Shown here: positions 5,205 to 41,335 of the stretch, piece after piece | How positions within the stretch are numbered: the stretch's first letter is position 1 | Layout of the letters: every line of letters begins with the position of its first letter | Origin: Tubulanus polymorphus | Lineage: Eukaryota > Animalia > Nemertea | Length of the DNA stretch: 64,000 bases | Reading direction: 5' to 3' | NCBI RefSeq assembly: GCF_964204645.1 | Contig: NC_134034.1 | Location: 8,816,962-8,880,961, forward strand | Notes under the pieces: model-generated | What the model saw: the letters and a program-made list of their open reading frames with translations, nothing else | What the model was told of the DNA's origin: nothing | Database searches by the model: none | Program-made: the position numbers and the translations under genes

Positions 5205-7581
5205 CGGTTCCTGAACTTCGCTTACAAAGCTGAAACACTGAAAAGCTGAAACGCTGAAATAAAAACGCTGAAATTTCAGGGAATTTCCGAAAAACGCCGA
5301 AATTTCAGGGAATTCCCGAAAAACGCTGAAATCGTGCTAGGTACCGACAATACACGTTTTGAAATTTTTTCCGGGCCGGTGTCCGCTGACGAGTCCTGAA
5401 CAGTGTTTTATGCTCTACCTTCGGTTACAGAGACATGCCTTAAGGTCGTCGTCATGATCGACTTGATCGATTGCAGATTGCGTGGATTGTTAGATGTGTT
5501 TTTTGCCATAGTTTTATGTGCATATACCGGTACGATCTAACAATGAAGTTATCACTTCATTTGAATAAATTCTTAATCACAGTAATATTAATTCACAATA
5601 TTTTTTCTTATGTTTGGTGATTTCTTGCAACTTATCATTGCCAAGTCTCATACAAGTAGTAGCTGAATGAAAGTACAGTTAGGCTGAACCTGATAACCCA
5701 AATTAAGTGCTAGCATGGAACTAATGATTATTTTGATTCTATTTTCGGTGTCATTGAAATTCGTTAAGAAAGGTTCAACCGTCATAGTATACTGTACTTA
5801 GCATTGCTACAATTGGGTGCCATATTTCTACAATTTCTACAAGGAGGAAGGAATCTTTAAGTGTCTTTGTTCCCGGGTAGGGTACGGGGTAAAACCTGGT
5901 TCACTTTCTCTTTCGACTTGCCGGAGACTACTATCTGCAATGTATTGCATGCTTTGATGTGTCTGGCCTATAGGAGTCGAACGATATTTTTTCCCCATAC
6001 ACAGGCTTGGCTTTAGTGTAGATGAAGGCTAGGCACTGCACATTGTGGATTGACTGGAACTCTTAACTCACAAAATTAAACGAGTCAACAAGAAAGATCC
6101 AATAATTGGACATTTGTCTAACTATATTATTTAACAGCTTGAAATAAAACATAACACATTCTGCAAGAGTATACAAAGGAAATCAGTTCTTACATTATAT
6201 CAGAATCAATAGTTCGCTTAACTCTGGCTAGAATTCTGGTTCCATTGCTTCATATTCTAATGAAATCCACTAGTATACCTTAGAATATCGCTTAGCTTAA
6301 GACTAAAAATTTGGTACCAGGAAACAGGGAAGAAAAGTGGGTGTACTGTACATCCGCAATTGACTTATTTCTCTCAGGTTGAATCAAGTTATTATTGAAA
6401 TAGCATTCGAATAGCCATTTTATTTTTAAAAATTGTGTCGTTCAGCTATCCTGCTGCAAATTTCGCAGTTGAAGTTTACTGGTGCCATCTGATTTCTCAG
6501 TATCTCAAAACATTTGCACATTCTAAGCCTGAATCTAAAAATAGAAAAAGGTGCATTTTAGTCGGATATAAAAGAATAGTGGCTAATGCACCCTGGACTA
6601 TATAGCCTATGGGGTGGGCCTAGTTTGAAAGCACTGAGGTCCGAGAGAACAGCACTTAGTAAATAAATACTGAAATTAAACTTACAAAACACCCAGTACT
6701 TGAGATGATGTACTTGACAAGAAATGTCACCAGCTAAGCAAATCAACTTTGTCTATGACTCCTCCTTTTATAGATTCAGTAGTAGTCTAAAAATAAGAAT
6801 CGGTACATTTTTCTAACAGTTGGTATGTCATTTCTTCAAAAAAACTAATTATTATCACGCCACAGCAAATAAATTATTCACAGTTGTTGAATGGTTAGCC
6901 CGATTTAGATTAATTGGTTGACGCTAATCAGTATGACCCATACGTAGGGGCCTACTGCATGCCATTGGCGTCAATCCATTCCATTCCATTCCACAGTGAA
7001 TTAAAAAGAAATTTAGTTAGATCCCTTTTGTCCAAAAGCTGCATCATTTATATAACTAGCTGTCAAATTTAATGTACCTCCTTCAGAGAATACCATAGTG
7101 ACATAGTCCGTCGCCCATCAACGTGTTGACAAAAGAAAAGTTGCTGCATGTTTTATACATGAACGTTCAAATAAGATATTTTGCGTCTTGCAGGGAATAT
7201 TGAGCATAGTGTTAAAGTTGGCTTGCACGGTTTGTGAATGGGTTTTCCTCATTATGCTGCCTGTATGCATTAAAAATCCGGATTTCAAGCGAATTAATTT
7301 GTCCAACAAGTGGCCCTCTAGAAGTATACTCCACACATACTGTCCATGCATGTCTCTGTAACCGAAGGTAGAGACTAAAACACGGTTCAGGACTCGGCAG
7401 CGGACACCGGCCCGGAAAATATTTCAAAACGTGTATTGTTGGTACCTAGCACGATTTCAGCGTTTTTTGGGAATTCCCTGAAATTTCGGCGTTTTTCGGA
7501 AATTCCCTGAAATTTCAGCGTTTTTATTTCAGCGTTTCAGCGTTTCAGTGATTCAGCTTTTTCAGCGAAGTTCAGGAACCG
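5205..7581. mobile_element. Non-autonomous MULE/foldback-like DNA transposon with ~234-bp TIRs
   Basis: TIRs 5205-5438 and 7348-7581 with internal GCTGAAA repeats; 10-bp TSD GACTTTATGA at 5195-5204 and 7582-7591; no internal coding capacity. Confidence 0.9.
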
Positions 7582-8210: not shown

Positions 8211-9066
8211 ACAAATCTAACTTTGTGACAGTTTATGTGAAAATTTGTGAAAAATCTAAGGACCATGTGAAAGAAATATAAAATTGTATCCAGAATTTTC
8301 CTTAGATTGTAACAAGTTTTGAAAAACCCATGATGAATTTCAGGCTTTCTTCATCACACTGGACTGATTGTTTATAATTTATTTAGTTTGATGGTTTATT
8401 ATTTTATAATTGTTTATTAATAATTGGCAGTTTTAATTTTGAGTTTTATTTTTTAAATTCGAATCTTTTATTTTTTTTATACTAGAATAGGGATTCCAGA
8501 AATATTTGGTTGATTTAATGGTAGTTCAACTTTAGGAAATTCACCATAAAATTTGAAATTTGTAGTTCGATTCAGTGGTAGTTTGACTTAAGAAATTTCA
8601 CTCTAACATTTAGAATTTGTAGTTTAGTAGTAGAACTTATTTTAAACTAGAAGTCCCTCAAAATTGTAATTTTTCAATTCAGTGTATATGTCCAAAATTG
8701 TAATTTTTCGATTGAGTGTGTATGTCCATTGTGCTTAGAAGCCTGCCTGTTATGCAAATGACAAACTATGAAATTTTTAATGCTGCCTACTATGTCAAAA
8801 ACATGGTAGAAGGTTCCAAGCCCTTAAAAAGCAGAGGAGAGATTTTATAGAAAAAGGTATCATTTATTTAGTTGTCAGGTCATTTTTCACTGATAAAATG
8901 AGCTGAGAATATGAAGATTGGCAGGATGGAAATAAACTAATTAAAACTCATTAATCTACTCCCAGATTCGAACCACTAACCCCTCAATAGTACGGGATTC
9001 CCTTTGCCGAGTGAATGGAAGTTCAAGTACTGTAGTGGTTTGCATCTAGCAGTACCCCTCCGGCAT

Positions 9067-9744
9067 TCAGGAAACGCAACCGAGCCGAGTGAGTCGAAGT
9101 TTCTGACCAGGTGAAAGATCTAATGGCTGGTCAACCGCAGACACACCCAAGGACAGGTCCAGTGGAAAAATTGGTACGGATGTGCCCAAAGATCCGCCCA
9201 ACAATTGCCCAGCTGCAGTTGTGTCAACAGACGATGGTCTATCCGCCAACAATGGGGACAGGTCTAATGGCTGCTCTGTGTCCAATGGACGTTCGGCATC
9301 CCCTGTAGGTGAATCAGGTGGCACCGAACAACAGCACGAAAAACTCGAGCTGCCTGAGCAGGTCGAACCAGCCGATGAAGCCCGCGTGATAAGCTGGTCA
9401 GTCCCTATCGGGCTACAACGGTTCGAATCCGTACCCGATGAATTCAGAGTGGGGAAAGAGGGTGCTGAGGGCGGACAAGTGCACCGCATCCGGTCGTAAA
9501 AGACCGCTAGCGTTGGGCACGTGCAGTATAAACAAGTGTCTTGTAACTCAAAGTCCGTTAGCCGGGAATACGGAGTCCCACTATTGTCCCTAGAAGGTGA
9601 CCGTGCTGCAGCTATCGATGTCGGAGCTGCGGGTGTCAAGCGCACCGCAACGAGACACCTCTTTCGGGGTGGGGCACCCAAATAACCAGCGCTACGGCGT
9701 TTGGTTGTAACCCTTACCGTTATCTTACCTTACCGCCCCGACAT
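9067..9744 (-). CDS. Low-complexity accessory protein with three PLDLS (CtBP-binding-type) motifs; probably slightly decayed
   Basis: ORF 9067-9681 has EQPLDLS, FPLDLS, DQPLDLS and a basic PPRKR; the in-frame ATG at 9744 is followed by one stop (MSGR*GK). Confidence 0.5.
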
Positions 9745-10849
9745 AAACAATTGATAATAATATTAATAGAAAGAAAATGTATGATCATCAGTGTTAAGCA
9801 ATCTAGAATCCCTCAAAGTCACTCAAAGTAGCCGTATACCCGCGACCTGTCGGCTACCAATATGTTGTGATCAGGGATAGCGCACAAACTAAAATCCCCC
9901 TGATCCAAGAAAGACGTATCGCTATTGGTTAATCCACCGGGTGGAGGGTTCGAATCCCTCACTGGCTGTCCCACAGCCCCGACGGTGGTGGTACCTTTGG
10001 TGCTGGTTGGGTTCGATTCCCACAGCGGCTCCCTTAGGTGAGCCGGTATTTCCCAACTAGACTTGGGAGCTGGGGCAAGTGTATGTGTTTTATAAACCGT
10101 AGCCCCGCAGTGATCACGCTTCAACCCAACCGACATATATAACAAAAGTGAAATATTAGAATAGCAAACCAATTATTAATTAAATCTGGTTGTATAATAA
10201 TTAAATCATTAATCAATAATTAAATACTTAAATGATAATATTAAACCAATTTAAAAATAGTAATAAATAATTAATTAACAATTAAATACTTGAATGATAA
10301 TATTAAGAAAATTGGCGCCCTCTAGCCAACTCTATTTAGGCTGGGCAAAGAAAATAACCATTCGCGTCTTTATCCCCAAAAATGAAGTCGTTCGGGTTCG
10401 CGAAATCCCGAAAAAAGTGTACCCAGAACGGGTCGAACTTGTCTGGCACCTTAACCAGCCGTACTCTGCGTCGGCGTTCCGAGGGGTTCAAATCCCCAAA
10501 GGTGACCAGAGCTGGCGCCTCGTGCTGTGTAGCACGTGGGTTTGGTTCCCACAAGGGCTCAGCGGGGGCGACCGAGGTGAGCGGTGGGTTCGTATCCCAC
10601 AATGGCTCCTGATTGTCTTCAATCAAACGTAATGCCTTTGGTATCGGTGAGTTAGAATCCCACAAAGGCTCCTGATTATCTTCAATCAAACCTAATGCCT
10701 TTGGTATCAGTGGGTTAGAATCCCACAAAGGCTCCCGGTGCTCTTCCTGTATTTCGAAAGGCTTAATCGGTGGGTTCGAATCCCACAATGGTTCCCGATA
10801 CTCATCCGGGATCTGAAATGGTCGTGCACGGGGTGGGTTCGAATCCCAC
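9418..10849 (+). repeat. Array of 11 tRNA T-arm / Pol III B-box-like hairpins
   Basis: Stem-TTCGAAT-stem units at 9418, 9944, 10008, 10391, 10483, 10536, 10584, 10647, 10710, 10770, 10833. Confidence 0.8.
9819..10172 (-). CDS. Small accessory protein, paralog of the adjacent WDSNP-repeat protein
   Basis: Shares xHCGA and W/F-EIP..REPLW(D/E)SNP motifs with ORF 10336-10980; GC-rich island bounded by AT-rich spacers. Confidence 0.5.
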   Translation of the reverse strand: MVCYSNISLLLYMSVGLKRDHCGATVYKTHTLAPAPKSSWEIPAHLREPLWESNPTSTKGTTTVGAVGQPVRDSNPPPGGLTNSDTSFLDQGDFSLCAIPDHNILVADRSRVYGYFE

Positions 10850-10980
10850 AATGCCTGTGTCGGCCTGTTTACTGGAGTGCGGCGCTTCTTTGAAAAAGCG
10901 TTCTTCGCACCACAGTGTGAACAAATAAAAATTCGAACCATTAAAATTAATAAATTACAAATAATAAAAGCTCGACACAA
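10336..10980 (-). CDS. CxHC + EPLWDSNP-repeat protein (likely start MVRIF at 10941)
   Basis: Six to eight repeats whose spacings (63,60,63,63,48,54,90 nt) are all multiples of 3. Confidence 0.55.
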   Translation of the reverse strand: MCRAFIICNLLILMVRIFICSHCGAKNAFSKKRRTPVNRPTQALWDSNPPRARPFQIPDEYREPLWDSNPPIKPFEIQEEHREPLWDSNPLIPKALGLIEDNQEPLWDSNSPIPKALRLIEDNQEPLWDTNPPLTSVAPAEPLWEPNPRATQHEAPALVTFGDLNPSERRRRVRLVKVPDKFDPFWVHFFRDFANPNDFIFGDKDANGYFLCPA

Positions 10981-10994
10981 TAATTAATCAATAT

Positions 10995-11007
10995 GGTTTC
11001 GGCACCA
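10995..11007 (-). promoter_or_regulatory. Primer-binding site complementary to the tRNA-Phe 3' end
   Basis: Minus strand reads ...TATCA-C-TGGTGCCGAAACC; plus strand GGTTTCGGCACCA matches the eukaryotic tRNA-Phe 3' end including CCA. Confidence 0.7.
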
Positions 11008-11008
11008 G

Positions 11009-11450
11009 TGATACACCGGTCACAATCCTCTCTTTAATCGTTATCTATAAAATACTTGTGTAAGGCCCTGGCGAGAGAACGTGTCCGTGCACAAATCCGA
11101 ATGAATAAATTGAAATACCGGATGATAATATTGAAGATAATATATTTTATTTACTTTGAACCTGAGAATGATTTTCCTAATCCCTATTATATGAATCCCT
11201 ATCGTTCCGAAGCTTCTCCTGTCCTGCTGTCGACACTCGTCTTACTAAGGTACAGATTCTCCCAATTGACTGCTCTCTCAAGATGCGGGTCCCTTTTATA
11301 GAAAGAATCGGCATTCTTAAAATACCGACTCTCCCACTCGACTTTTGGCAAGGAGCAGCAACCTTACTGTCATGACTGTTTTGGTCATATAGAATTTGGC
11401 CTTAATGATTCGCTGATCTAAAATTATTTTCAAAACTGATTTGCTAAACT
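11009..11450 (-). repeat. Probable LTR (3' end defined, 5' boundary uncertain; no partner found in window)
   Basis: Ends in CA 1 nt before the PBS; minus-strand TATAAAA (11300-11294) and AATAAA (11151-11146) in U3-R-U5 order. Confidence 0.5.
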
Positions 11451-13080
11451 AACTTTTTCCCTCCAACCCTCCTGTCATGACGCGTTGTGATTTACTCACT
11501 CCTTGCTAGTCGTTGTTGAGAGAGCAGCTATTGTATGTGAATTACCAACGAGCGCATACAGACAACAGAAACTTCAGACAGCTAGTTTTAACATTTAACA
11601 TTAATTAATTTTTCTAAAACATTAGCGATTATTAACAATTTGTTCTTAAACAACATCTAGATTACTCAAATTAAATATCTTTTCAAAACTTTGTTTTCTT
11701 TTCTTATTACAGTACAAATTCATTGTTTCTTTTTTAATTATTATAATTAACTACGATTTGGAATACATTGTGATTGATTATCAATTCTTAAATTATTTGA
11801 AATACTAATTATTTTATCTACAATTTAACTAATTCTATTTTAATACAGGATAAGCAAAACAACCACATCTTCCTAAACTTCCGGTTTTTCCTTTTACGGA
11901 AAGTAGCCGGGAATATCATCAAGTATCAGCGTGATCCCTTCACGAGCCTCATTATAAATACACTCCATTGTTCCGACCCAACCAAATATGGTTCCAACTA
12001 TTTAAAAGTTTTATATAAAGATTTTCTGAATGTTTGCCAGATCTCACAGCAGAAGAACCGAGAAAGAATTGTTGTTTATAGACTGATTTATGGTTTGCGT
12101 TGGTAGATGAAAGCATCAAACAAGAACTTTCGTAATTCTTACTACTAGTACGTTCTTGTCTGACGGCTTTAACGTAACCCCTACGCATACGGAAACAACA
12201 TTAAGAACATTTCTAAATACTACGAAATATTTTCAAATACTACGAAAATCTAGCTGTGGATCAATATAAACTAAAACTGAACTGAATTGAAACTGAGTTC
12301 GGTTAGAGTATAAACCTCCTAATTAACTTTCGGAATTATATATAAAAGAGTGAAGAGTGAAACATCAACCCTTATACCGAATACACTTGTATAAATGAGA
12401 AAATGCACACTAGGACAATGGCTAATTTGCGACCTTAAAATGAAAGAAAGACTCGAATTTCTTTTATCACACGCGACACGCGAATCTCCTAATTACTCTA
12501 ATAATGAGAGAAAACTTCAGACGAATTAAATGTATCAGCTTTATAATTGAATGATGATTATGTACGCTTAACTTCAATGATTTGTATCGATCGGTAAATG
12601 AAATTTCCATTTAAAGAATGCATTTATCAAATTACGTCCATTGAAAATGAAATTAGCTAAACTCGAGGCATATCACTATTTAGATTTATCGCAGTTGTCT
12701 TTTGAAAATTTATAACCAATCTTTATATAGTCCCCTGTAAAATCTAAACTCAATTTCTATATTATACACGTGATTTAATTACGATTTCTCAACTTCGTGT
12801 TTATTCTATAATGAGAAGCGCACTGATTAAATCTGATTTCAACAGATTGTCGAAAAAGTTACAGCAATTTACTGTTAGAGAAAGAAAATACTAAATCTAT
12901 TTAGTTTTCTAAAATTATATGTAAGTGTCATACCATCTCATGCTCTAGGATATTGTGTATCGTAACATTTGAAATTGCTAAATCTACCTGGCTTCATTGG
13001 GTACTGTTTTCTAAAAAGAAAAACAAATAACACCCAACGCGCCATTACCTATAATTCTAAAAGTTCAGGTTATAACGTTA

Positions 13081-18480: not shown

Positions 18481-18729
18481 AGAATTACCGAAGTCTTCCA
18501 ATGACCACTTTTAGGTCTCCCAATGACCAAACTGTTGGTCCTCGTCCCCATATGTTTGTCCTCCATTGACCACATCGGCCATTACAGGACTTCAGTGATC
18601 ATTGCAAGACCTCTGTGGTCACAAAGGGACCTAAATGGTCATTCTAGGACATGGGACATTACAGGACATCAATGGTCATTGCAGGACTATATAGTTATTG
18701 CCGCTGTATTAGCACTTCTTTATAGTGTG

Positions 18730-21435
18730 AGTGAGATAAGCATAATCAATTCTGAATTGGCAGGGGATTTGGGTTTAAAAGGTACTAAAAAACTTCTTAC
18801 AATTAATACATTGAATTCATGTGATACGACTATGTGTGAAAAGGTCTCATTTTCAGTACGATCCAGATTCAACGCTGACGCTGAGCCGGTTACCGTTCAA
18901 GCTTGGACAAGAAACGATCAGTTCCATTGTCCACCTCAACATTCCCACCTTCCTAAAGTATACAGTCATTTGACAGGTCTGAATCTCGGTGAAATAGAAC
19001 CACAACAAGTAAAACTTTAAATCGGGGCCAATGTCCCAAGGGCCCACATACAATTGGAAGTAGTCAAGGTACTGATTACGAACAACCTATTGGAATACGT
19101 ACGCCTCTGGGTTGGTGTGTTATAGGGGTCGCGGACAATGATACAAATTAAAGACTCGTTCTGATTTCGAACTTCTTAACAATCAGAAATTTTGAGAAAC
19201 TGAATCTTTTTGTGCCGTTGTCGTCGATGAGAATACGTGTCGCTCGGTTGAAGATAAACTTGCTTGGCAGATACTAGAATCTAGCTGTCGCTTTGTGAAC
19301 GGTCACTACGAGGTCGGTATGCTGTTTCGAGACCCCTAAGCTTCCATGCCTGACAATAGGTGGCAGACCGAGGTTCGGTTTCGGAATTTGAAACGACGAT
19401 TGTACAGAGATCCGAGTTTATGCGAGGCTTATTCTAGAACTCTGAATGGCTACATCGAGAAGGGTTATGCCCATAAGTTGCCAGAAGAGGAAATCAATAA
19501 CACAGGTAAGAAAATTTGGTTTCTGCCGCATCATGCCGTCGTTAATCCTAATAAACTAGGAAAGGTCCGCGTGGTCTTTGATGCAGCAGCCCGCTGCAAC
19601 AACGTTTCCTTAAATGGCCAACTTATGACGGGACCAGACCTACTCAATGGGCTATTTGGTATACTGTAACGCTTTCGTTTGGGTAAAGTCGTACTGGTTG
19701 CCGACGTCGAGGCAATGTTCCATCAGGTCCTTGTACCTGATTACGACTCAAACTCTTTGTTATTTTTGTGGCAGGAGGACCTGGCCAAAAATGGTGGCCC
19801 GGATGTCTATAAAATGACTGTCCATATCGTTGGTAGTGTCGATTCGCCGTGTGCGGCTAATTACAGTTTAAAACAATCAGCAACTGATAATTCAGATAGA
19901 TACTGTGAATTGGCCGTTCACACTGTTGTCAATGATTTTTATATGGATGACTTAATTTAGTCTGTTGATTCTACATGTCAGGCAATCGTATTGAAAAACG
20001 AAGTGACACAGATTCTTGTTCGCGGAGGTTTTCACCTCACGAAATGGTTGAGCAATGACCGTCAAGTTTTAGCTGAAACGCCCAAAGATGAACGCACCGA
20101 ACCCGAGCTGGACCTGGACCTTGATGACCTACCCGTCGAAAGGGCGCTTGGGGTACGCTGGGATGTCGAGGCGGATTCGTTCGTTTTTAAGCCCATTTTG
20201 AAAGATCCGGTCGCGCCTACTAAACGTCAAGTCGTCAGTGTAGTAAGCTCTGTATTCGACCCCCTGGGCTTCGTTTCGCCGTCTATTTTCAGGGCTAAAT
20301 GTTTAATACAGGATATTTGGCGCAGAGGCTCTGATTGGGATGACCGAATTGATGGTGATCTCGCGGATAGATGGCTCACATGGATTAACGAACTTCACTT
20401 TCTATCAAATTTTTGCCTGAATCGTCATCATTTCAACCTGCTCGATGGAGAGTCGGTGGTAGAAATTCACATTTTTGCAGATGCATCCGAGAGAGGATTC
20501 GGTGCAGTGGCATACTTGCGTATTGAGCTACCAAGTGGTGAGTTTATGTGTTCCTTTCTCACAGCTAAAACTCGGTTATCACCGGTCGAGTCCTTGACAA
20601 TACCTAAATTAGAACTTGAGGGAGCCCTGCTAGCAGTTTTATTATTCAATACAAGAAAATGAGCTGAGTCGATTAGAATTTCGGCGCACTGTATTTTGGA
20701 CGGACGCACTGACAGTTCTTAGGTATATTAATGATTCGAAAACAAGGTTTAAAACCTTTGTAGTAAATAGGCAAACGAAAATATTGCACAGTTCGGATAC
20801 CAAACAATGGATGCATGTCCCGTCAGGCTTGATTCCTGCAGATGCATGCGCGCGCGGTTTGCATGCTAATGAATGTAGTAATCCCGAATGGTCCCGCGTT
20901 ACTCTGTAAAGATCAGAGGGCTTGGCCTGATCAGAAAATAGTGACGGGTCCCGTAATTGATCAAAACGATGTAAAAAATGCAAAATTGTAAATATATGTT
21001 CGTATGTCAATGATTCAGTATGTGTTCACTCCATTGATCATCTCAGAAGTAGAAATCGACGAAGGATTCTCGTCTTGGTACAAATTGAAAAGGCATGGAG
21101 CATGGGTGCTCATAGCAGTCACTAGATTTACAGCTTCACTTCCACGTTTGAGTAAAAAGTGGTGTGGTGAGTCTGTCAAGAGTAAGTATTTGTTGGTGTC
21201 CGAAATCAATCGCGCGGAAGACGTCTTTGTTCGGGATGCACAGTTGCGCCACTTCGCTCCCGAGATTCGCTCATTAAAACAAGGAACTGCTCCGTCAAAA
21301 AAGGCTCGTTACAACCGCAATACCCTTTTTACAATGGTGAGCTTATCCGCGTTGGCGGTAGGTTGGCTCAAGCTAATATCCCGTCCTTTATATATGAAAT
21401 AAAATCACCAGAACATAATTCTTCTAGATCTTCAC
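18730..21435 (+). pseudogene. Decayed BEL/Pao pol (protease end, RT, RNase H/Peptidase_A17)
   Basis: WFLPHHAV, KVRVVFDA, GPDLLN, DVEAMFHQV, FYMDD, RALGVRWD, HIFADAS, IPKLEL and IRVGGR spread over several frames with stops. Confidence 0.9.
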
Positions 21436-21439
21436 TTGA

Positions 21440-21918
21440 TTATCTATGAAATCTATCTGGTAAATATGTTCTGAATTTATATGTATTTCCTTTTAATCCT
21501 TCATATTCTAAGTGAATAACTAATTTATCTCCATATTTGTTAGTAACTGTATCAATATTTGTTATTAAATATTTCTTATGAATTGTTAATTCTGTTAACT
21601 TCTTAAATTTATAATCTACAGATTTAGCATTTGTGATATACATGTATTTTATTCTATCTAGAAATGATTAGTTGTTCTCACTGTGTATTTGTTTACTACT
21701 CTCCATTTTAATAACATGTTTTTTATTAAAATTGATTTTAGAAGTTATTAGATTAATATTTTTAGAGTTATAGGCAATGTGTTGTTCTAGACCAAAGGTT
21801 GAGATGTCAAGTGAGTAAAAAATGAAAAATAAATTCGAGTAAACGAGAATTTATATTTACGTTTTTTACTCACTCGACCTCTCGACCTTTGATCTAGAAC
21901 AACACATTCCCTATTACT
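21440..21918 (-). mobile_element. Terminal fragment of a second, related Polinton: hairpin end plus one small gene
   Basis: Ends CCCTATTACT like the main provirus; imperfect palindrome 21766-21918; gene 21706-21440 closely matches the gene at 33270-33619. Confidence 0.85.
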
Positions 21919-22215
21919 AACATTATTCGGCAATTTTCCGAGTATGATCGGTACTAGAATCGATCCAAAACTTTGCGACGATTTGCCCTGAGATTCCAAC
22001 GTGCGGATATGTAACTCGACTTTATCGTAGAAATTGCGCATTGAAGTAGCATCGATAAAAGGAGCTCTTGATTCGATGAGATTTTAAATAAGCTTCGATC
22101 ACTAGATGCGGTTGACCGAATCTCTGGACGAGTAATTCTTTCGCGTTTTCGTAATTTTCGGACGTTAACGGTAAACCTTCAATACACAATTTCGCTTCAT
22201 CAACCAGCGTGCGAC
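21919..22215 (-). pseudogene. BEL/Pao gag (DUF1759-like) fragment interrupted by the Polinton end
   Basis: CIEGLPLTSENY..., MRNFYDKVELHIRTLES...LVPIILGKLP. Confidence 0.75.
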
Positions 22216-22808
22216 GTTTTGATCCGCAATTTCGTTAATAATCAGTTGATCTGTGAATATTATGCATCAATTCGTTCAGTTAGGATTTCGCATTCGGAAT
22301 TAAATTATGAATTAAAATTATTTGAGTTTTTATATACATGTATCAGCGATTGGTTACTCATCATACGGCTCGTGTAATGTTGGAAAACGCCTTTCGCAGC
22401 CCGTAACCTACGACGTTTTTTATGCTAATGAACAGTGATGAGGTCACTAACGTTCCGAGCGTCGGTGGAGCGGTCGTTTTTTAAGCATTACGCGAGTCTA
22501 TGCCGAGTAAACTATGGCTGATGAATGAAAACAAAAACAACTTTAGGAAAAATCATTTTAATTCTGAATGCAAATTCCTTACTGTTTAGCGATTGTCTCG
22601 TTGCTGGCTTACGTCGACAAGCGACGCGATGCCTACCGACGCAACTGGGTTTATCGCCGATAGTAGTGACAACTGAGCAGCCTATGATAGGCCGCCAGTT
22701 GCTGCTGTAGGCCTGTCTGTTTGAGATAAGCCGGCTTGCGACTGGGTGGATCCCATATTCCGCTAGTCGGGCTCCAGTTGCAGGGAATCGGAGCCAGTCG
22801 ACATACAT

Positions 22809-23104
22809 ATCTCGTCAGAGTCTAAACCATCCTCGTTTTGTTTCAATATGTCGACACTTGAGAGTGACACGTCTGTCGTATCAACGTTAACTTCCGGTCG
22901 ACTTAAAGCATCAGCGTTACCATGAGTGCTGTTCTTTTGAATACCCGGGTTCTTCACCAAATTATGTGATGATGCACGGTGTCAACACACAGTGTAGGAA
23001 CTTGTCAAATCTTAAGATCCGGAATCGAGAACACGAAAAACCCTGGATAGCGAAGTTCTTCAGTACGACAAGTTGGTTTATTTCACAGGTGTAGTCGATC
23101 GTCA
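22809..23104 (-). mobile_element. Partial copy of an internally deleted Gypsy-type element (U5, PBS, RNase H tail)
   Basis: Near-identical to 23778-24080; HGNADALSR motif; lies between 95-bp direct repeats 22709-22803 and 23130-23224. Confidence 0.6.
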
Positions 23105-23624
23105 CACACATGTATAAGTTAATTATAAGAGGCCTGTCTGTTTGAGATAAGCCGGCTTGCGACTGGGTGGATCTTATATTCCGCTAGTCGGGCTCCAGTT
23201 GCAGGGAATCGGAGCCAGTCGACAACTGGGCTGCGATCGCGGTTGCTGCCAGTTGCATCGGAAGGCGTCGCGTCTCGCTTGACGACATAAGACAGCCTTT
23301 ACTTTCGCTGGGCCTGTTATCAGCTCACATTTCACCAATGATAACATGCTTTTGACGAAACAGATCAATTAGTCACCGGATAAGAGAAACTATTCATTGG
23401 AGGCAGGACCAGTGGAGACAACGAATTATAACGCAATATTCTTTTTAATTAAATATATTTTATTCATTTGAAATAAACATATACTTACCTCTGCTACCAT
23501 CACCTTTGCTCCATTAGCATCAGTAGAGGTTCTGTAGCCTATTACGTCACAGACGCCCCAACTAAGGAAAGTGGCCAGTTGCACCGGCATTTTGAATTGG
23601 ATTAGTCAAATGATTACTCCAAAT

Positions 23625-24080
23625 TTACCTCATTATAACATTCAGTATCCACCCCCTCGGACATCCCTCGTCCGTTCCTATAGGAATAACATCGTAATCA
23701 CTCACACATTCATAACCTGAAGTTCTTTTCGATATATAGCGTTTTCGTAAGTCCCAAGAATTTTCGTCACTGGGAGATGTCTCGTCAGGGTCTAAACCAT
23801 CCTCGTTTTGTTTCAATATGTCGACACTTGTCGTATCGAGTGACACGTCTGTTGTATCAACGTTAACTTCCGGTCGACTTAAAGCATCATCGTTACCATG
23901 CGTGCTGTTCTTTTGAATGCCCGGGTTCTCCACCAAATTATGTGATGATGCACTGTGTCAACACACGATGTGGGAACTTGTAAAATCTTAAGATCCGGAA
24001 TCGAGAACACGAAAAACCCTGAATAGCGAAGTTCTTCAGTACAACAAGTTGGTTTATTTCACAGGTGTAGTCGATCGTCA
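23625..24080 (-). mobile_element. Internally deleted Gypsy-type element: U5, tRNA-Ala-like PBS, RNase H tail
   Basis: Minus strand AATAAA...CATCACA-TAATT-TGGTGGAGAACCCGGGCATT followed within ~20 nt by HGNDDALSR. Confidence 0.55.
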
Positions 24081-24449
24081 CTAAATTCTTACTATTTTAT
24101 CTTAATACGTAAAACTTTCATTGATTAAACTAATGACATTTTAATGCCTGCGCTACACTTTATCTAGACTTTCTGACGAATTCACATGATGCTGAATATT
24201 TAATATAATTATTTTTTGATAGGTTTTCAAGATAATAAATACACTTGTTCGCTTCTCAACAATCTCCCCTTCCTGATAATCATACGGATAATCATGGTTT
24301 TAATTTTACAATTTCAACAATCAATTAAGCTAAAATACAACTATATGCGTATCTATGAAATAAATTCTACACACGTTATATAAATCTTAAATTCTAGTTA
24401 TTAATATACATGTAATTTAAATCCTTTTAAATGAATCAAAAATAATCTA

Positions 24450-25510
24450 CAATTGCTATCGGTAGTTTCCATCGTACATAATTTTGCAATTGGTCCAACC
24501 AATGTTGTTTTACCCACTTGTAACTTACCTACACGAACGTGCCCGTCTTTCCCTGGAAAGATCTCTAACACGCGCCCTAAAGGCCATTTACCCCTTGGTG
24601 TATCTGACGATATTACTAAAACGACATCCCCGACTTTAAGTTTTCGTTTAGTATCTGTCTATTTTTTGTGCGAATTCAACTGTGGTAACCATTCTCTCAT
24701 CCATCTTTGCCAAAAATGTTTCATGAGTTCTTGGACACGTCGCCATCTTCTTCGTGGACTGAAATCCGTTTCATCTAAGGTATCTGGCGCGAACTGACCT
24801 CTCATTGAAGAACCATTTCACACCTTGGTTTGCCGTTGTCCGTCTCATCTTTTCTTTGTCTAAAAGTTTCACCAATTCTTTGAGTTCGTTGTTGGCTCCA
24901 ACAAAATTCGTTCCGTTGTCTGAGTTCATCTCTATTGGCAGCCCTCGTCGATTAACCATTCGGTAGACTGCATTCAAAAATGCATCCGTGTCCAAACCGA
25001 ATGCGAGTTCTAAATGGACTGCTCTGCTTGACAAACATGTGATAAGACACAAGTAACGCTTTTCTCTGCTCTTTCCGCGACCCTGTTTCGTGATGAATGG
25101 TCTACCAAAATCCACTGCCGTTCTTGCGAATGCGCGTATAGGCATCTTTACCCTATGTCGTGGCAACGGTGCCATGACCTGTGTTGCAGCCTTAGCTCTT
25201 CGTTTCTTACATTTGCAGCATTCATGTTCAACATCTCGAATCACTTCTCTGGCGCTGATCACCCAGTATCGCGAGGATAAACTTGCCAACACTTGTTTTG
25301 TACCACCAACATGATGGTATTTATCGAGGTGGTGTCTTACTATCAATTTTGCTACGTGGTGATGCCTTGGTAATATGATCGGATTCTTCACATCGTTATC
25401 TTCCTTCGCATCTTATCAAACCTTCTTCGTCTAATCTTGGCTTTAAACTGAGGAGTTTGTTGTTTGATTGTAAACTCTTTCCTTTAACCAACAATGAGTA
25501 TTCTTCTTAG
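24450..25510 (-). pseudogene. BEL/Pao integrase (HHCC + DDE + DUF5641), frameshifted and deleted
   Basis: [40 protein letters not shown] motifs. Confidence 0.9.
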
Positions 25511-25514
25511 AATC

Positions 25515-26659
25515 CGGTGTTGTCATATCGGGGAAAGACGGAATCGCGGAATTATCCAAAAACGCGGAATTTCTTCATTTTTACTATAAATAGTAAACGG
25601 GTTTTCCCACGGGGATACCCACTGTCGGACAGGGATCCGGACCCAGGTTTTCAACACCGGGAATTAGTATTTGATTATTTATTATATCGCCAGTCAACAA
25701 CTTAACGATACTGTTCCAAATAATGGAGAACCTAGGAAATACGTGCTTTGCTAATTCAGTGATACAGAGTATCGCTGCATTAACTGAAGGAATACAAATC
25801 GATGGTACGTAAACGTAGGATTTGTAATGACACCATGGGTCATTCTCCAGGACTCAGTTCCGAGTTAAGATTTGACTCTGGTCTCTGGGTTTAAAACATT
25901 GGAAATGAATTGATACTAAGTAACTCAGAGTTAACTCACAACTGTGGAACTGGATCGATGTCAGACGAAAATAAATAGACATTATGTATATTTCATTCTG
26001 GCTTAGGATTGTTCATGCGTGTTGTGTGTCTACATTGTTGTTATAAGCGAATGTGGTTTATCTTTTAGAATTAAATGAAATGAAAGATTATAAAATGGTT
26101 TCGTTTTTTTTAATGTTTACTTTGTGACTGCTATATCATATATGTTCCTATGCTGATTATTTGGATCAAAAGAATCTTATTGGTACCGGTACTGGACGGC
26201 CGTAAAATTATAATAATTTCAAAGGAATTTGAACCGGTACTTGTTTGGTCGTAGGATTTCATGTTTGCAACCATCTACAACTACGGTCCGACACCGCGAA
26301 CGTGCTCAAAATTCATTTGATAATATTCGTTTCTGAAGTTCTCAAAAAGTCGATGAACTTCGATAACCGAAGTTTGCCTAGTAGAAATAGACATAAGGTG
26401 CCTGGTCTCTTTCACCCCACTTGATGCTGACTTCTACAGGTGGCAGCCAGTCAACGGTATCGTAATATAATAATTCCATATAAAATTGCCTGCAAATAAT
26501 GGGATTCGAACCTAACTCGTTGCATCGATCGGTCCCGTGCCCTATCCGACAGTGGGTATCCCCGTGGGGAAACCCGTTTACTATTTAAAGTAAAAATGAA
26601 GAAATTCCGCGTTTTTTGAAAATTCCGCGATTCCGTCTTTCCGCGATATGATAACACCG
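25515..26659. mobile_element. Non-autonomous TIR element (~129-bp TIRs, CGGTG ends; hAT-like)
   Basis: TIRs 25515-25643 and 26531-26659; no matching TSD. Confidence 0.85.
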
Positions 26660-29843: not shown

Positions 29844-30223
29844 TGAGATACTACAGAAATTATGAGATATAAGTAATAGGGGTAATAGGCTTTCAAGCCA
29901 AAGGTCGAACGGGCGGGTGAGTAAAAAATAAAAAACATGAAAATAATTACAATTTCTACTTGAATTAGGAGTGAAATTCGCGAGTACCCCTATTACTCTT
30001 AAAATAATCATATACATGAATAACATTTAAATTGACAGATTATTCAATATAAAAGTGTAAGCTCTAATAGAATAGATATATAGATATATTTACAACATTA
30101 TTTTATTATTTATATTTGTATGAGTTAGATTTTTAAACATTAAAAGTGTTAGTAAAGTGTGATTGAAATAATACATGATATAAATCATTGAACTAAAATA
30201 AATTAAACAATAAAAGACCATAC

Positions 30224-33168
30224 ATGGAAGATGTGAGAAATTATATTAATTCATTAGATAATAAAAAAGATATAGAGATAACCGAAGCATTTAAAAGTGA
30301 TATTGGTCCAGCAGCTAACGAGTTTAAATTTCATAAAGGAAAAACATTAGAAGAAAATAAAAAACATTTAGAAAATATGAAAGAAATAATAAAAATAATT
30401 ACAGATGTTGAATATCCTAAAATAAGTATATCAGTTAAAGTAAAGTTTATAAAATCTGAAGATAAACCAATATATAATATAAATTCTCATTCACAACATA
30501 TTATATCTAAACAACATATAGATGATAAATTAGATAAATGTTATGAAGTAAAAACTAAAATAGAAGAGAAATATTTTGAAGGATCTGGTTTAATATTTGA
30601 TGAAATAATATTTATGACTTTACATGTTTATAACACAAAATATAATAAGTTAACTAAATCAAAACCAATTGATGAAAATAATGTATCATATTATAAAGAA
30701 CCAGATATTGAAGCATCGAGTTATATTAAACTACCATTTAAAACTAATGCTGTAATAAATGTACAAAATGAAGATGATAAATGTTTTCTATGGGCTATGA
30801 TAAGTTGTTTACACCCAGTTGAAGATTATAAACAACATAGTTTTAGATTAACTCATTATAAACAATTTGAAAATAATTATAAGATAGATAAGTATCCTGT
30901 TATAATTAAAAACATCCCAAAAATAGAAAGAGATAATAATATAAAGATAAATGTATTTGATTTAATCAAATTACCAAATACAAAAGGTAACAATATAAAA
31001 CATTATACATTAGAACCTTTATATCTATCAAAAGATTATGATTCAAACGATGTTATAGATATACTATATTATGAGAATCATTATATGTGGATTAAACAAA
31101 TAGATTTATTCTTTAGAACAGAAAGTGATCATCATAATAAAATATATCTATGTAGAAAATGTTTACATAGATTCAGTAATGAAAGTACATTATTGAATCA
31201 TAAACAATTATGTGAAAATCATGATTGTTGTAAATTAGTTTTACCAAATGAAAAAGATAAAATATTAGAATTCAAAAAATATGATTACAAAAATAAAGTA
31301 CCATTTGTAATATATGGAGATTTTGAATCATTAAATAAAGAACTAACTGATCAAGATAGAAAAGAAATATATTATAAGAGAAAGAAATTAAATTCTAATG
31401 AAAATGATTTTTCAGATGAACCACCAAAAACAAATACTATTAAAAAGATTCATCAATCAGCTGCAGCTTTCGGGTTATATATTAAATCTGATTATCCAGA
31501 ACTAATTGAAAGTGAATATTATGATTATAGAAATGAAAATGTTATCAATCATTTTTGTGACTTATTAATTGAATATGAAATAAGATTTAGTAAATTATTG
31601 AATACAAATATAGAAATTATAATGACAGAAGAAGATAAAGAAGAATTTGCGTTTGCAGATAAATGTTATTATTGTGAAAAGATATTATTATTAACCGATA
31701 TATTCGAAAGGTTTAGAGATGTAAACCTAAAATATTTCAATATTGATCCTTGTCATTGTTATTCTAGTCCAGGTTTAACATGGGATTGTGGATTAAAATT
31801 TACAGATATAAAAATGGATTTGTTAACAAATATAGATCAATTACTATTATTTGAAAAATCTATAAGAGGAGGTGTTTCAGGTGTATTAGGTGATAGATAT
31901 TTCAATGTAAATGATAACCCTGGATATAAGTTATTATATATAGATGCAAATAATTTGTATGGTTGGGCAATGATGGAACCACAACCTCATGGAGTATTTA
32001 AAATAAGTGAAGTTTTACAGAATGAAAATAATGATAAATTTGATTGGAAGAAAAGAATTCTTGATATTGCAGATGATTCAGATACTGGTTACTTTTTTGT
32101 TGTAGATTTAGAATATCCTGAACATATTAAATTTAAATCTAGAAATCTAGCTTACTGTCCCGAACATAAAACTGTAACTCATGAAGAATTATCAAATTAT
32201 CAAAAAAGAATTAAACCTGAAAATCATATTCATACAGAAAAGTTAATGGTAACTCAAGAAGATAAATATAATTATGTAGTACATTATAGAATGTTAAAGT
32301 TTTATCTAAAACAAGGAATGATCCTAAAAAAAGTACATAGATATATTTCATTTAGTCAATCTAAGTGGTTAGAAAAATATATAGATATTAACACCAAACA
32401 GAGAACTGAAGCTAAAACTGATTTCGAAATAAGACTTGTGAAAATATTAGAAATAGAAATGATATTGAGTTAGTAAGTAATGGTAAAAGAATTAGACATT
32501 TACAATCATATCCTAAGTTCATTGGTAACAGAATATTTGATGAAAATTTAGCTGCAGTTAAAATGAGAAGAACATCAATGAAATTTAATAAACCAATCTA
32601 TGTTGGTGCTTCAGTTTTAGAAATATCAAAGCTATTGATGTATGAATTCTATTATAATGTATTACGACCACTTTTTGGAGAAAAACATATAGAAATATTA
32701 TATTGTGATACCGACAGTTACATATTAAAGATAAAAACTGATAACATAACTGATGATTTAAAAACATTAAAACATCATTTTGATTTCAGTAATTATCCTA
32801 AAGATCATGAATTGTTTAGCAATGATAATAAAAAAGTTCCCGGTAAATTCAAAGATGAATTAGGTGGTGAAGAAATGATAGAGTTCATAGGTATTAGATC
32901 TAAAATGTATTCATATAAAACTAAAGAACATGAAGCTAAAAAGTTAAAAGGAATAACCAAAAGTGTAGTAGAAAAGAATATTCATTTCAAAGATTACATC
33001 AATTGTATATTCAATGAAGAAGTTAGGAAACATAAGATGAGATGTTTAAGATATGAAGATCGTGAAATGTTTATTGAAGAAATTGAAAAGATAAGTCTAT
33101 ACCCATTTGATGATAAAAGATATATTTTAGATGATGGAATTCATACAGTTGCTTATGGTTGTAATTGA
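30224..33168 (+). pseudogene. polB: Protein-primed family B DNA polymerase, inactivated
   Basis: EGSG, NEDDKCFLWA, IYGDFES (ExoI), SIRGG, YIDANNLYGWAM (A), KPIYVG, YCDTDS (C); ExoII region and motif B missing; frameshift near 32430. Confidence 0.95.
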
Positions 33169-33269
33169 GATGAATACTTAAAATTTAAAAGAGAAGAAAC
33201 AAAAGAGAACGAGATAATGAAAAGAATTCTAACGTGTTAATCAAATTTTAATAAAAATATGTATTATAA

Positions 33270-33619
33270 ATGGAGAGTAAACACACAGTGAGAACAACAA
33301 ATCATTTCTAGATAGAATAAAAGATACTTCAAATGTCAAATCAGTAGATTATAAATTTAAGAAGTTAAAAGAATTAATAATCCATAAGAAATATCTAATT
33401 ACAAATATTGATACAGTTACTAACAAATATGGAGATAAATTAGTTATACACTTAGAATATAAAGGATTAAAAGGAAATACATATAAATTCAGAACATATT
33501 TACCAGATAGATTTCATAGATTATCAAGTGATGATTTAGAAGAATTATGTTCTGGAGATTTCTATTTCGTATACAAAGGTAAGAATGAGAAAGGACATCA
33601 TGAAATAGATTTCGAATAA
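33270..33619 (+). pseudogene. Small Polinton protein (possibly OB-fold ssDNA-binding), frameshifted near the start
   Basis: FKKLKEL..KKYLIT..NKYGDKLVIHL..TYLPDRF; second copy at 21440-21706. The fold assignment is a guess. Confidence 0.55.
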
Positions 33620-33636
33620 GAAAATATGTAAAATAA

Positions 33637-34397
33637 ATGGTAGAATTAAAAGAATACAGAATATTTGTTGATTCAAGAAGGCTTACAAATTATAAATCAC
33701 ATAATTTACTAGTACAATTAGATAGAGAATTCAAGAATTGTGTAGATTTAAAATTAGTAATATAAGTTTATGTAATTCTTTTTATAATATAACGAATAAA
33801 ACTATTGAACATAGAGCCTTTTTAATTTTTGATAAAGGTAAAAATGAATGGTCCTATATATATTTAAAACCGGGGTTATATTATTTAGATACATTAGCAC
33901 AAGAAATTAATAGAAAAGCCTGGCACAAATAAGGTAGTAGTTCTGGGTTTAGTATTAGATTTTTTAAAAGTGATAGTTCTGATAGAATAAAGATAAGGTT
34001 GTCTAATAGTGAAAAACATAAATTTATGGTAAAAAAACCTATAGCTAAACTGTTAGGAATTCTTCCAGATAGATCTTTTAAAGATATTGATGATGTTACA
34101 CCAAACTTAATACCTTACACACACTTTTATATTTATTACAATTTAATCGATCCTACAAAAACATTCGAAGCAACTAAAGATATAACTTGTAATTCTGGTT
34201 TACTAAACATTTTACCATTGAAGAATGTTAAAGAATTTGGAACGCAAATAAATTATAATTTAACAGAATGTGATTTCAAACCATGCATACCTCGTTTTAA
34301 TAATTTTAGATTAGAAATTAGAAATCACAATGGATATTTAATAGATTTGAATAACTTTCCTGTAATTTATGAATTAGTTATAAGATGTAGAGAGTAA
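33637..34397 (+). pseudogene. Minor capsid (penton-like) protein, disrupted
   Basis: N-terminal IFVDS..SHNLLVQL and C-terminal LLNILP..FRLEIRNHNGYLIDLNNFPVIYELVI pattern of Polinton pentons. Confidence 0.7.
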
Positions 34398-34414
34398 TTT
34401 TTTTCACTATATAA

Positions 34415-34759
34415 ATGAATATAACTGTTGGACCGAGTATATGTTTTGGTTTTGATTTTAAACATGGTAAAGAAATGAGAATTAAACTAAATGATGTAAT
34501 TACTGATATAAAAAGTAAATCATTTAACAATGCATCAATGATTAATAAAGAAAATTATAATATAGAAAAAGTAATTGATTTAATTAAATCACCTTTAGAA
34601 TATTATGAATTAAATGAAGATGGAATTATTGATGATATTAAAAACATATTAACCAAAATATATGATAATCATAAAAGTAGTAATGAAATAAATGTTGAAT
34701 TAATCATAAATAAGTTAACTAAATATTTTGATGATAGTAATGTTTTGATAAATAAATGA
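34415..34759 (+). CDS. Polinton hypothetical protein
   Basis: 114-aa ORF with T-tract + TATAAATG start. Confidence 0.6.
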   Translation: MNITVGPSICFGFDFKHGKEMRIKLNDVITDIKSKSFNNASMINKENYNIEKVIDLIKSPLEYYELNEDGIIDDIKNILTKIYDNHKSSNEINVELIINKLTKYFDDSNVLINK

Positions 34760-34977
34760 GTGATAATAAGTGGATAATAACTGGATTATATAATGGAGCA
34801 TTACTATCAGTTGGAACTGTTGGTTATTCAATGGTATTAAAAAAAGTATTCAAAATGGGAAGTGTTAATGTTGATAGATTTGATATAAATGATATTTTAA
34901 AATTAACGTTAGCAGTTACTTTATCTAATTTAACTATTGATTATTTGGAAAAACAAAAACATATTCCTCCCATATAA
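34756..34977 (+). CDS. Small hydrophobic Polinton protein
   Basis: 73 aa, two hydrophobic segments, TAAATG start. Confidence 0.65.
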   Translation: MSDNKWIITGLYNGALLSVGTVGYSMVLKKVFKMGSVNVDRFDINDILKLTLAVTLSNLTIDYLEKQKHIPPI

Positions 34978-35001
34978 ATGCATATTTATTTTACTAAATA
35001 A

Positions 35002-35433
35002 ATGGCTTCTGCAGTTATAACTATTATAGGATCGGCAATTGTTAACGCTTTAGCATTTACTGGTGGTGGTTATTTATTTAAGCATATTGATAAAAATGGA
35101 TCATTAACAGAACAAAAAAGACATAACTTAGCATTTAGCATTAGAAAAATACAATAAAGCAGCGGAAGAATATAGAGAAAAAAGAGGCAAAACTATATGG
35201 ATTACATCAATAAAGAATTATATGATCAGAAGATTTCACATAGAGATTTTCAATCAGTTGATGATGCAATGAGTTTATATAACGCAGTAAGCAATAAAGA
35301 AAAATTACATCTACATAAACCTACAATATCAGATTATTATACCCCAAGTAATGAACAGAAGAAATATGAAATAATATGGATTTTAGGTGGAACAGTTATT
35401 GTTATATTTGTGGCGTATAAGTTTACTAATTAG
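35002..35433 (+). pseudogene. Polinton membrane-type protein (VNALAFTG...KRHNLA), frameshifted by a 7-bp duplication
   Basis: MASAVITIIGSAIVNALAFTGGGYLF; TTAGCATTTAGCATTAG at ~35128; C-terminal hydrophobic helix. Confidence 0.7.
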
Positions 35434-35454
35434 TAATTTTTTTTTGCTAAATAA

Positions 35455-35889
35455 ATGGAAGATAAAGTTGATAATATTGATATTATTCCTCATGATATAA
35501 ATAAAACTAAATTAAAAATATATTTAGAAAAACAAATATTAGAATTTGAAAGTGACTTAAAAGTTAAAAAGAAAAAATATTTAAAAAGTAAAATTATATA
35601 TTATTTGATTATAAGTGGTTCGGTTACAATGAGTTCTGTAATAACATTTCTAGCAATATTCAGTCCATTAACACCTTTAGCTATATCAATTGGTGTATTA
35701 GGATTATCATCAAGTGTTTTAACCGGTATAAGTTCAAAATAAAATATAAAAAGTAATAAAGAAAAAATTAAAACTAATATAAAAGAAATTAATAAATTAA
35801 AGAATACATTAGATTATATAATAAGTTTAAATGGTCATATAACAGTTGAAGAAAAAGATAAATTATCAAAAGAATTAGTTAATTATTAA
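35455..35889 (+). pseudogene. Two-TM Polinton protein with premature stop at 35740
   Basis: Frame continues past the TAA to 35889. Confidence 0.6.
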
Positions 35890-35905
35890 TTTTTTAGTTA
35901 TATAA

Positions 35906-37225
35906 ATGGCAGACAGTTTTCCAAAAGCTTTCCAATATAATAAATCAATTAAATATAATATTCCAGCAATAGATTTTAATAAAGATATTACATACAGAAA
36001 TGAAGTTTTAGATTCATTAATTGATTGATATATTTATGCTACTGAAAGTAATAATTTTCATGTAAAGATGGAAAATATATTTCATGTGTATACAATTAAT
36101 TTCAAAAATTTAAATGAGGCAAAACAATGGTTATTAAAATCTAATATGAAGTATTGGCAGAACCAATTAAATTTTGCTGTTTATTGCGCAACAACAGGAT
36201 GTGGTATTAGTTGGAATGGTCATTTAAACAAACCAAGTTTACCATTGATGTTATCACTTTTTAGATTTCATACTTATTTTCAAATAAAATTAATATTAGA
36301 TGAATTAGAATGTCCTTTACCAGGTTCAAAATATTTTAAAGAATTGAATAATAATATTAATTTTTCTAAGTTTTATAAAATATGTAATGAATTTAATATT
36401 AATTCAAATAAAGATTTTAGAGCAGAAATTGGAACAATGGGTGGATTAGGAATATTATATACTAAAGTATTTGGAAAAATAATGACAAATTCAGATATAA
36501 GAACACTAAATTGGAATGAATTACCAAAATATTATAATAATATACAACAACAAAACAATAATGGTTGGGTTAATTTCATTTTAGAAAATAATGAAGGTTT
36601 TACAAAAGCTGGAATACAAAGAATAAATCAATCTATTAGAACTTATTTGATATGTATTTTAGGCGCGCAAGTTGAAACAAGATCCCCAATAGTTGGAAAT
36701 GATAACACTTCATTCGATGCGCAGAAACAATTCAAAGTATTATTTGAAGATTCAATTCACAATGATAAAAATAGATCGATTCCAGAAAACATTGTAAGAT
36801 ATCAAAATTATTTAGATAAATCACATATTAGATTAAATTATTGTATAGGCCCTAATCTATTTATTATTTCTAATGATTTAGTATTAAAGATGGGAAATAT
36901 AATTGGTTACAATAATCTAATTAAAACTGCAACAATAAATAATTCATTTGGATTGAATGATATAAATAAAAAGATAATTACTGCTCCAAAATTAATGGAA
37001 GGCGAAAAAAATAAAAACATATTCAATCAACAGAAACTAAAACTGAGAATATTAAATTAGATAATGATTCTAAAATAAAAGATTACAATACATCAGAAAA
37101 TATAAAAACTGATATTATTCAACATGATATAATTAAACTAAATGATGATAATAAATCCCATGAAAATGCTAAATTAGCTTTAACTTGTATAGGAATTGTA
37201 ATCGGAGGAATATTATATTTTAAAT
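35906..37225 (+). pseudogene. Polinton protein with a WQNQLNFAVYCATTGCGIS motif, disrupted
   Basis: TATAAATG start at 35906, in-frame stop before ORF 36068-37060, frameshifted hydrophobic tail. Confidence 0.65.
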
Positions 37226-37246
37226 TTTAATTTTTTTATTATATAA

Positions 37247-38658: not shown

Positions 38659-38678
38659 TTAATTTTTTTGTTAAATAA

Positions 38679-39926: not shown

Positions 39927-39958
39927 AATTTTAACTTTAATAAAAATTTATATAATAA

Positions 39959-40839: not shown

Positions 40840-40871
40840 AATATTAATTATATTTAACACAAATAATAATA

Positions 40872-41335
40872 TTGGTTGAAAATTGTATAAAATAATAGTA
40901 AATAAAAAAGGGGGTTTTAAGTATTTAAGGTATTTAAGGTATCTAATACATATCTAATACAATCTAATACAATCTAATACATAAAATATCTTATTTTATA
41001 AACTGATATTCATATGGAAATTGAAACCTCAGTAATAATAAATAACCTTTATTATTTTCAAACTTATTCATATATTAGTTGAAAAAATAAAAATAAATTG
41101 GTTGATAATTGTATAAATAATATTTATTTTAAAAAAGGGGGTTTTAAGTATTTAAGGTATCTAATAGGGTATCAGGTATTAGGGTATCAACTAGGGTAAC
41201 AGGTATTAGGGTATCTAATAGGGTATCTAATACATAGGTATACAAATAGTTATTTTATAAATTTATATTCATATGGAAATTGTTATCTCAGTAATAATTT
41301 TGAACCTTTATTATTCTTTAATTTATTCATATATT
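40872..41335. repeat. Diverged tandem duplication covering the ATPase 3' end and the convergent intergenic region
   Basis: TTGGTTGA.AATTGTATAAA...AAAAAAGGGGGTTTTAAGTATTTAAGGTAT at 40872 and 41098; TTATTTTATAAA...ATTCATATGGAAATTG at 40991 and 41250. Confidence 0.8.

Follow-up and report, generated by a model that had tools for sequence, protein, structure and literature searches.

A dual-coded, variable-number hairpin repeat beside the primer-binding site of an LTR retrotransposon in Tubulanus polymorphus

The element and its surroundings

The window (the whole stretch of 64,000 nucleotides of Tubulanus polymorphus DNA analysed here) holds part of an LTR retrotransposon on the minus strand, and the hairpin array that is our subject lies in the 5' 1.9 kb of this element (Table 1). 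Its LTR is bounded by TG...CA and carries putative promoter and poly(A) signals, its copies are dispersed, and a tRNA primer-binding site (PBS) adjoins the 5' LTR. Other copies were examined in the reads of a single raw DNA run and in sets of contigs. Read depth over the LTR is 532-1230 against 7-18 in the flank, or about 59 times the flank (41-95), and the LTR borders are marked by 445 loose read ends with mixed flanks at 11009 and by 140 near 12267. The internal part lies at about 6 times the flank and the part nearest the PBS at about 14 times, ratios that are rough, given an AT-rich flank in which the haplotypes differ. The present copy is cut at 9103, where contigs from three runs go on into other sequence. 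We found no second LTR within the window and no gag or pol in the fragment from 9103 to the LTR. Neither a Pfam family nor a homologue was found for ORF1, ORF2 or ORF3, so we leave the element unclassified as to superfamily (Ty3/Gypsy or BEL/Pao) and autonomy.

Table 1. Features of the element fragment. Positions are those of the window; hairpin pairs and loop bases carry tRNA position numbers.
Feature	Position	Strand	Loop start	Remarks
5' LTR	11009..12263	-		1255 bp; TG...CA ends; read depth and loose ends
TATA-like box in LTR	11294..11300	-		putative function
AATAAA in LTR	11146..11151	-		single; placement as expected of the R/U5 end (putative)
Primer-binding site	10995..11007	-		complementary over 13 nt to the tRNA-Phe(GAA) 3' end; set one nucleotide in from the LTR end
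U-rich leader	10942..10994	-		57% T on the element strand
ORF1	10336..10941	-		201 aa; eight hairpin units as EPLWDSNPP-type repeats
U/A-rich spacer	10137..10335	-		
ORF2	9819..10136	-		105 aa; two hairpin units
ORF3 remnant	9103..9729	-		209 aa; one hairpin; three PLDLS motifs; cut at 9103
Hairpin 1	9418..9432		9422	4-bp stem; A-T at 50:64, C-G at 51:63
Hairpin 2	9944..9960		9949	5-bp stem; A-T at 50:64
Hairpin 3	10008..10022		10012	4-bp stem
Hairpin 4	10391..10412		10397	6-bp stem; C-G at 50:64; 10-nt loop with 8-nt palindrome
Hairpin 5	10483..10497		10487	4-bp stem; G-C at 50:64
Hairpin 6	10536..10552		10541	5-bp stem; degenerate loop
Hairpin 7	10584..10600		10589	5-bp stem; A58 lost
Hairpin 8	10647..10663		10652	C56 lost; one stem mismatch; acceptor-like extension
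Hairpin 9	10710..10726		10715	C56 lost; acceptor-like extension; duplicate of hairpin 8
Hairpin 10	10770..10786		10775	canonical unit
Hairpin 11	10833..10849		10838	canonical unit; 146 nt from the PBS

The tRNA-Phe(GAA) 3' end against which the PBS was matched is the probe given in a passage of PMC7038984. In 27 reads, 11014-11018 is joined back to 10995 with 8-12 extra letters, which brings the tRNA-Phe match to 18-19 nt and suggests a tandem PBS in some copies. Judging from the PBS and the LTR signals, the genomic RNA of the element would be the minus strand, in which case the likeness of the hairpins to tRNA T-arms, a feature of the plus strand, lies antisense to the genomic RNA.

All three ORFs are GC-rich and each is preceded by a U/A-rich spacer. 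An ATG after a U-rich stretch opens each of them (10941, 10136 and 9744, minus strand); ORF3 has no open start in the present copy. The repeat part of ORF2 is homologous to ORF1 (score 79 against a shuffle maximum of 52), and both proteins have HCGA near their start. This shared HCGA and ATG layout may hint at an ancient block duplication or at a polycistronic arrangement. Inspection by eye revealed no convincing splice sites across the U/A-rich spacers. The PLDLS motifs of ORF3 stand at residues 154, 189 and 202 (window 9103-9270, minus strand), together with a PRKR basic patch; PLDLS we take to be a CtBP-binding motif, and the ORF3 protein may act as a nuclear regulator. Protein searches with ORF1 and ORF3 returned no relative (best PDB match, E 0.28). 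Five matches from a search of representative proteins were set aside as not homologous; three resemble translated CRISPR-type arrays, with a regular spacer pattern, and two are low-complexity repeats.

The window is rich in other mobile DNA, with BEL/Pao elements, a Maverick/Polinton-like block and another reverse transcriptase. The BEL/Pao elements lie at 45402-56648 (minus strand) and about 18500-25400; in the first, the two LTRs are 98-99% alike and a segment with a P2RX7_C domain has been inserted. The Maverick/Polinton-like element (about 29900-45400, 20-26% GC) has a polymerase-like ORF, a capsid-like ORF, an A32 ATPase and an integrase with a chromodomain. Two inverted repeats of 234 nt, 95% complementary and 1.9 kb apart (5205-5438 and 7348-7581), are likely to represent a non-autonomous DNA transposon. 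There is also a Twister-P1 ribozyme match at 8774-8842 on the plus strand (53.6 bits, E 2.5e-10, gathering threshold 67.2; folding z -3.0). It has flank depth and lies beyond the 9103 break, so we rejected it as part of the element; it is probably a relic of another retroelement. Isolated B-box-like matches without a hairpin stem occur at 26502-26512 and 8964-8974 (both minus strand), the former perhaps from a decayed tRNA-derived repeat.

Hairpins with compensatory stem changes in three reading frames

The original prediction, made from the letters of this stretch, had described 11 hairpins with co-varying stems that resemble tRNA T-arms, lying antisense to three ORFs beside a PBS. All 11 were found where it placed them, between 146 and 1570 nt downstream of the PBS, so that units of 15-22 nt are spread over 1.4 kb and three ORFs. 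We use the standard tRNA position numbering, and the A-box and B-box consensus and the roles of the T-loop are those generally known. With a strict rule (loop within 1 mismatch, and 4 or more Watson-Crick pairs), the region 9103-11008 holds 8 hairpins, compared with a mean of 0.013 and a maximum of 1 in 300 dinucleotide shuffles. A test blind to the stems gave the same picture: all 9 plus-strand loop cores are paired at 50:64, compared with 1/39 background cores having three further pairs. The loop at 10541, which was absent from the predicted variants, is three changes away from a T-loop.

The stems covary. Across the ten units with 7-nt loops (9 of them distinct), the covariation score is 0.311 against 0.061, a value reached by none of 500 shuffles; the number of pairs changed on both sides, taken alone, is not significant (98/500 shuffles). 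In synonymous shuffles, which preserve the protein and its codon usage, the 43 of 44 stem pairs observed were never reached (mean 29.9, maximum 37; 0/5000), and the same holds for the five units with distinct stems (20/20 pairs vs 12.3; 0/20,000). The 50:64 pair is T-A in 7 units, A-T in 2, G-C in 1 and C-G in 1, and 45 reads derived from other copies show a further unit with C-G at this position; at 51:63, one unit has the flipped pair C-G. The 50:64 pair joins the wobble base of a Pro codon to the first base of a Trp codon. Changes of this Trp (to Arg, Gly, Arg and Thr) are always accompanied by a change of the partner base at 50:64. The Pro wobble base thus tracks a non-synonymous change four codons away, which none of 20,000 synonymous shuffles reproduces. 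The stems therefore pair with compensatory changes, and the sequence is under a constraint beyond that of the protein.

Two further details of the stems had been predicted. One was a stem mismatch at 10650, which is present here but nearly private to this copy (60/69 reads carry the pairing base). The other was a set of acceptor-like extensions: those of the units at 10652 and 10715, a recent duplicate pair, are significant (P 0.008 and 0.004), those at 9422 and 10487 are marginal (0.046 and 0.056), and the other 7 are not significant.

The minus frame also looks constrained. The listed ORF1 variants are synonymous in 20 of 42 cases against 28% expected (p 0.006), where the 42 comprise 40 of the 58 rows of one variant list plus 2 from another, and codons with multiple variants were handled site by site. 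The plus frame that shares the wobble positions also gives 20/42, but it contains stops. Two variants create stops in the minus frame and one insertion (7 reads) shifts it. Spacings in multiples of 3 had been claimed throughout; they hold for the 8 of 10 that lie within ORFs, but not for the two that cross ORF borders (527 and 385). The enlarged loop at 10397 does keep the frame, as claimed.

The number and order of units differ between copies, at unit borders, both in reads and in contigs. All five rearrangement joints of measurable length in other copies keep the frame (48, 60 or 63 nt from loop to loop), and units of the hairpin 10 type are far more numerous in other copies (read depth about 350 vs about 65). 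Of the 44 checks based on reads, which were anchored on the hairpins, 11 lack independence from this ascertainment. Hairpins are not significantly poorer in variable sites than spacers are (7/139 nt vs 32/402, p 0.34). The array is thus a dual-coded, variable-number hairpin repeat of one short unit.

What the hairpins may do

Tentatively, and with a probability of about 0.45, we read the hairpins as multiplied packaging or dimerisation stem-loops in the genomic RNA of the element. The stems would fold in the minus-strand RNA, and near-palindromic units (a stem plus a self-complementary loop of 6-8 nt) could pair two RNAs and/or bind Gag. Extra units would then give the element a larger share of packaging. 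Units with drifted loops would retain the stem only, and the T-arm look of the opposite strand would be coincidental or left over from the way the unit arose, with no part in what the unit does now. Of the three roles offered in the original prediction, signals in the genomic RNA near the PBS fit best, but a minus-strand loop palindrome of at least 6 nt is found in only 6/11 units, and in 5/11 it is at most 4 nt.

Several observations are consistent with signals of this kind. Homoduplexes of -17.5 to -25.9 kcal/mol are predicted for the four canonical units and the enlarged unit. Only 9 of 384 random 3-nt insertions give the 8-nt palindrome of the enlarged loop, and self-pairing of the loop at 10487 extends over 6 nt on the minus strand, compared with only 2 nt on the plus strand. 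C56, which is needed for the B-box and for the elbow roles of the T-loop, is a synonymous site of the minus frame and is lost in 3/11 units. By position and covariation these are stem-loops near a PBS, as in signals of the Psi/DIS type, with the minus strand as the putative folding strand. In Ty1 and retroviruses, dimerisation and packaging signals lie just after the PBS and partly within gag, as described in parts of PMC3592414 and PMC5454406. In folding predictions the two strands are about equal. When the ORF1 block is folded as the minus strand, the stems of the units at 10775 and 10838 do not form (probability 0.00), their bases being paired elsewhere, and that of the unit at 10397 reaches 0.22. 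Moreover, the ancestral unit is an exact T-arm of 5 bp and 7 nt on the plus strand, which packaging or dimerisation leaves unexplained.

In a rather unlikely alternative, an antisense transcript or the first-strand cDNA shows stand-alone T-loops to tRNA-recognising proteins; reverse transcriptase, RNase P/Z or modifying enzymes would bind or cut them. Here the canonical unit has the exact 5-bp stem and 7-nt T-loop, and the stems end at 4-6 bp. T54, T55, R57 and T60 are kept in 10/10 seven-nt loops, although these invariant positions of the loop coincide with the first and second bases of the D/E and N codons. A stand-alone T-loop can do without C56, and A58 is lost in 3/11 units. Plus-strand stem probabilities are 0.69-1.0 for 9/11 units, at least matching the prediction for the minus strand, and between 9000 and 11144 only one T4 run occurs on the plus strand; evidence of an antisense promoter was not found. 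One tRNA-like unit, 10443-10510, has a predicted fold made up of an acceptor, an arm, a T-arm and ACCA (z -3.07 on the plus strand, 0/200; -1.54 on the minus). However, its stack is 11 nt, not 12, and the majority variant at 10471 (39/62 reads) breaks a pair of its arm.

The first role in the original prediction, an array of tRNA top halves, fares poorly: acceptor stems are significant in 2/11 units, both of which lack C56, and there is no tRNA call. ARAGORN reports 0 tRNA genes, Rfam matches to tRNA-Sec and mascRNA have E values of only 6.8 and 8.8, and A-boxes are not enriched, so we rejected a tRNA gene or tRNA-derived SINE. A mascRNA-type top-half mimic was rejected as well, the acceptor/T-arm stack at 10487 being 11 nt where 12 bp are expected. 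A broader version would have the T-arm turned into a modular, in-frame, expandable signal, with a real T-loop on antisense RNA or first-strand cDNA recruiting tRNA-recognising machinery (the element's reverse transcriptase, RNase P/Z or TFIIIC) and a repeat protein encoded by the opposite strand. We regard this as doubtful.

It is unlikely that the stems are a mutational by-product, in which reverse transcriptase stalls at hairpins, units are duplicated, template switching corrects the arms and the stems covary unselected, with only the protein under selection. Quasi-palindrome correction is a known mechanism, unit number and order do vary between copies at unit borders, and the minus frame carries a purifying signal. 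However, such correction should lengthen the stems, yet 48:66 is paired in only 1/11 units; arms of 4-5 bp are short for this route, and every compensation costs the repeat its Trp.

Quite improbable, too, is the second role in the original prediction, an array of TFIIIC B-boxes acting on the DNA as an insulator or Pol III element, comparable to the regulatory 5' UTRs of the gypsy group. The 5' regions of LTR elements can carry enhancers and insulators, according to part of PMC1885662, and 6/11 units match the B-box. The covarying outer pairs 50:64 and 51:63 are unneeded at a protein-binding DNA site and would go unexplained. The loss of C56 in three units also counts against it, as does the lack of any strict A-box, relaxed A-box matches being no better than the control. 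Finally, the units could be anti-T-arm boxes by which the genomic RNA pairs with its tRNA-Phe primer, at the T-arm, or with 3' tRNA fragments; comparable boxes 0, 1 and 2.1 adjoin the Ty1 PBS in a portion of PMC3592414. This is very unlikely even though the units share the polarity of the PBS, because the match to fly tRNA-Phe is confined to a few loop-side bases, and stems that vary between units and covary within them indicate intramolecular pairing, not pairing to one tRNA.

Comparison with known systems

Read as packaging and dimerisation signals, the hairpins have their closest parallel in the Ty1 TIPIRT domain and retroviral Psi/DIS hairpins, which in the parts of PMC3592414 and PMC5454406 concerned likewise form structured cis signals immediately downstream of the PBS, with an overlap into coding sequence. 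Palindromes and hairpins bearing 7-nt apical motifs occur in them, and a role of these in dimerisation and packaging is either proposed or demonstrated. Unlike these, the present array repeats one unit 11 times over 1.4 kb in three ORFs, in varying number, and its opposite strand reads as a T-arm. The mascRNA/menRNA family of tRNA-like processing signals (RF01684) also has a T-arm and a partial acceptor stem, as do 2-4 units here, but the mascRNA score is 17 bits against a gathering threshold of 42.5 and most units have no acceptor stem. Box B of brome mosaic virus resembles a tRNA T-loop. In the part of PMC5869524 that treats it, box B is a small genomic-RNA stem-loop used for recruitment; our units, too, would be small stem-loops of a genomic RNA. 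Box B is single-copy and shows its T-loop face on the functional strand, whereas here this face is antisense to the genomic RNA.

The gypsy insulator is reportedly a Su(Hw) array. Among gypsy-group 5' UTRs, the ZAM enhancer and the Idefix and gypsy insulators have repeated motifs just downstream of the 5' LTR, which parts of PMC1885662 present as non-coding protein sites at the DNA level, whereas the units here covary as hairpins and are in frame.

Of 50 viral loci with paired T-loops, none had a blastn match to the element and 43 hold tRNA genes; 20 metagenome loci matched the 21-22 nt pattern only. We also observed a related mini-tRNA-like fold of 45-50 nt (acceptor, short arm, T-arm) directly upstream of apparent start codons in eight AT-rich metagenome contigs (L051:5790-5842, L059:1897-1949 and L066:1206-1258; also L053, L055, L060, L064 and L068). 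These folds have weak z-scores (-0.6 to -1.4) and no ARAGORN calls. They may represent a signal for RNA processing and have no relation to the element.

We found no account of such a layout among the open-access papers listed by our searches. The hairpin repeat of this unclassified LTR element is real, varies in number and is under a double constraint. To our knowledge, little is understood, except in yeast Ty1, of how LTR retrotransposons select their own RNA to be packaged. A unit of 15-22 nt with natural compensatory changes inside a reading frame offers a structure open to study with short RNAs. Should the T-loop face prove to be the working one, a mobile element would here be using tRNA mimicry in a new way.
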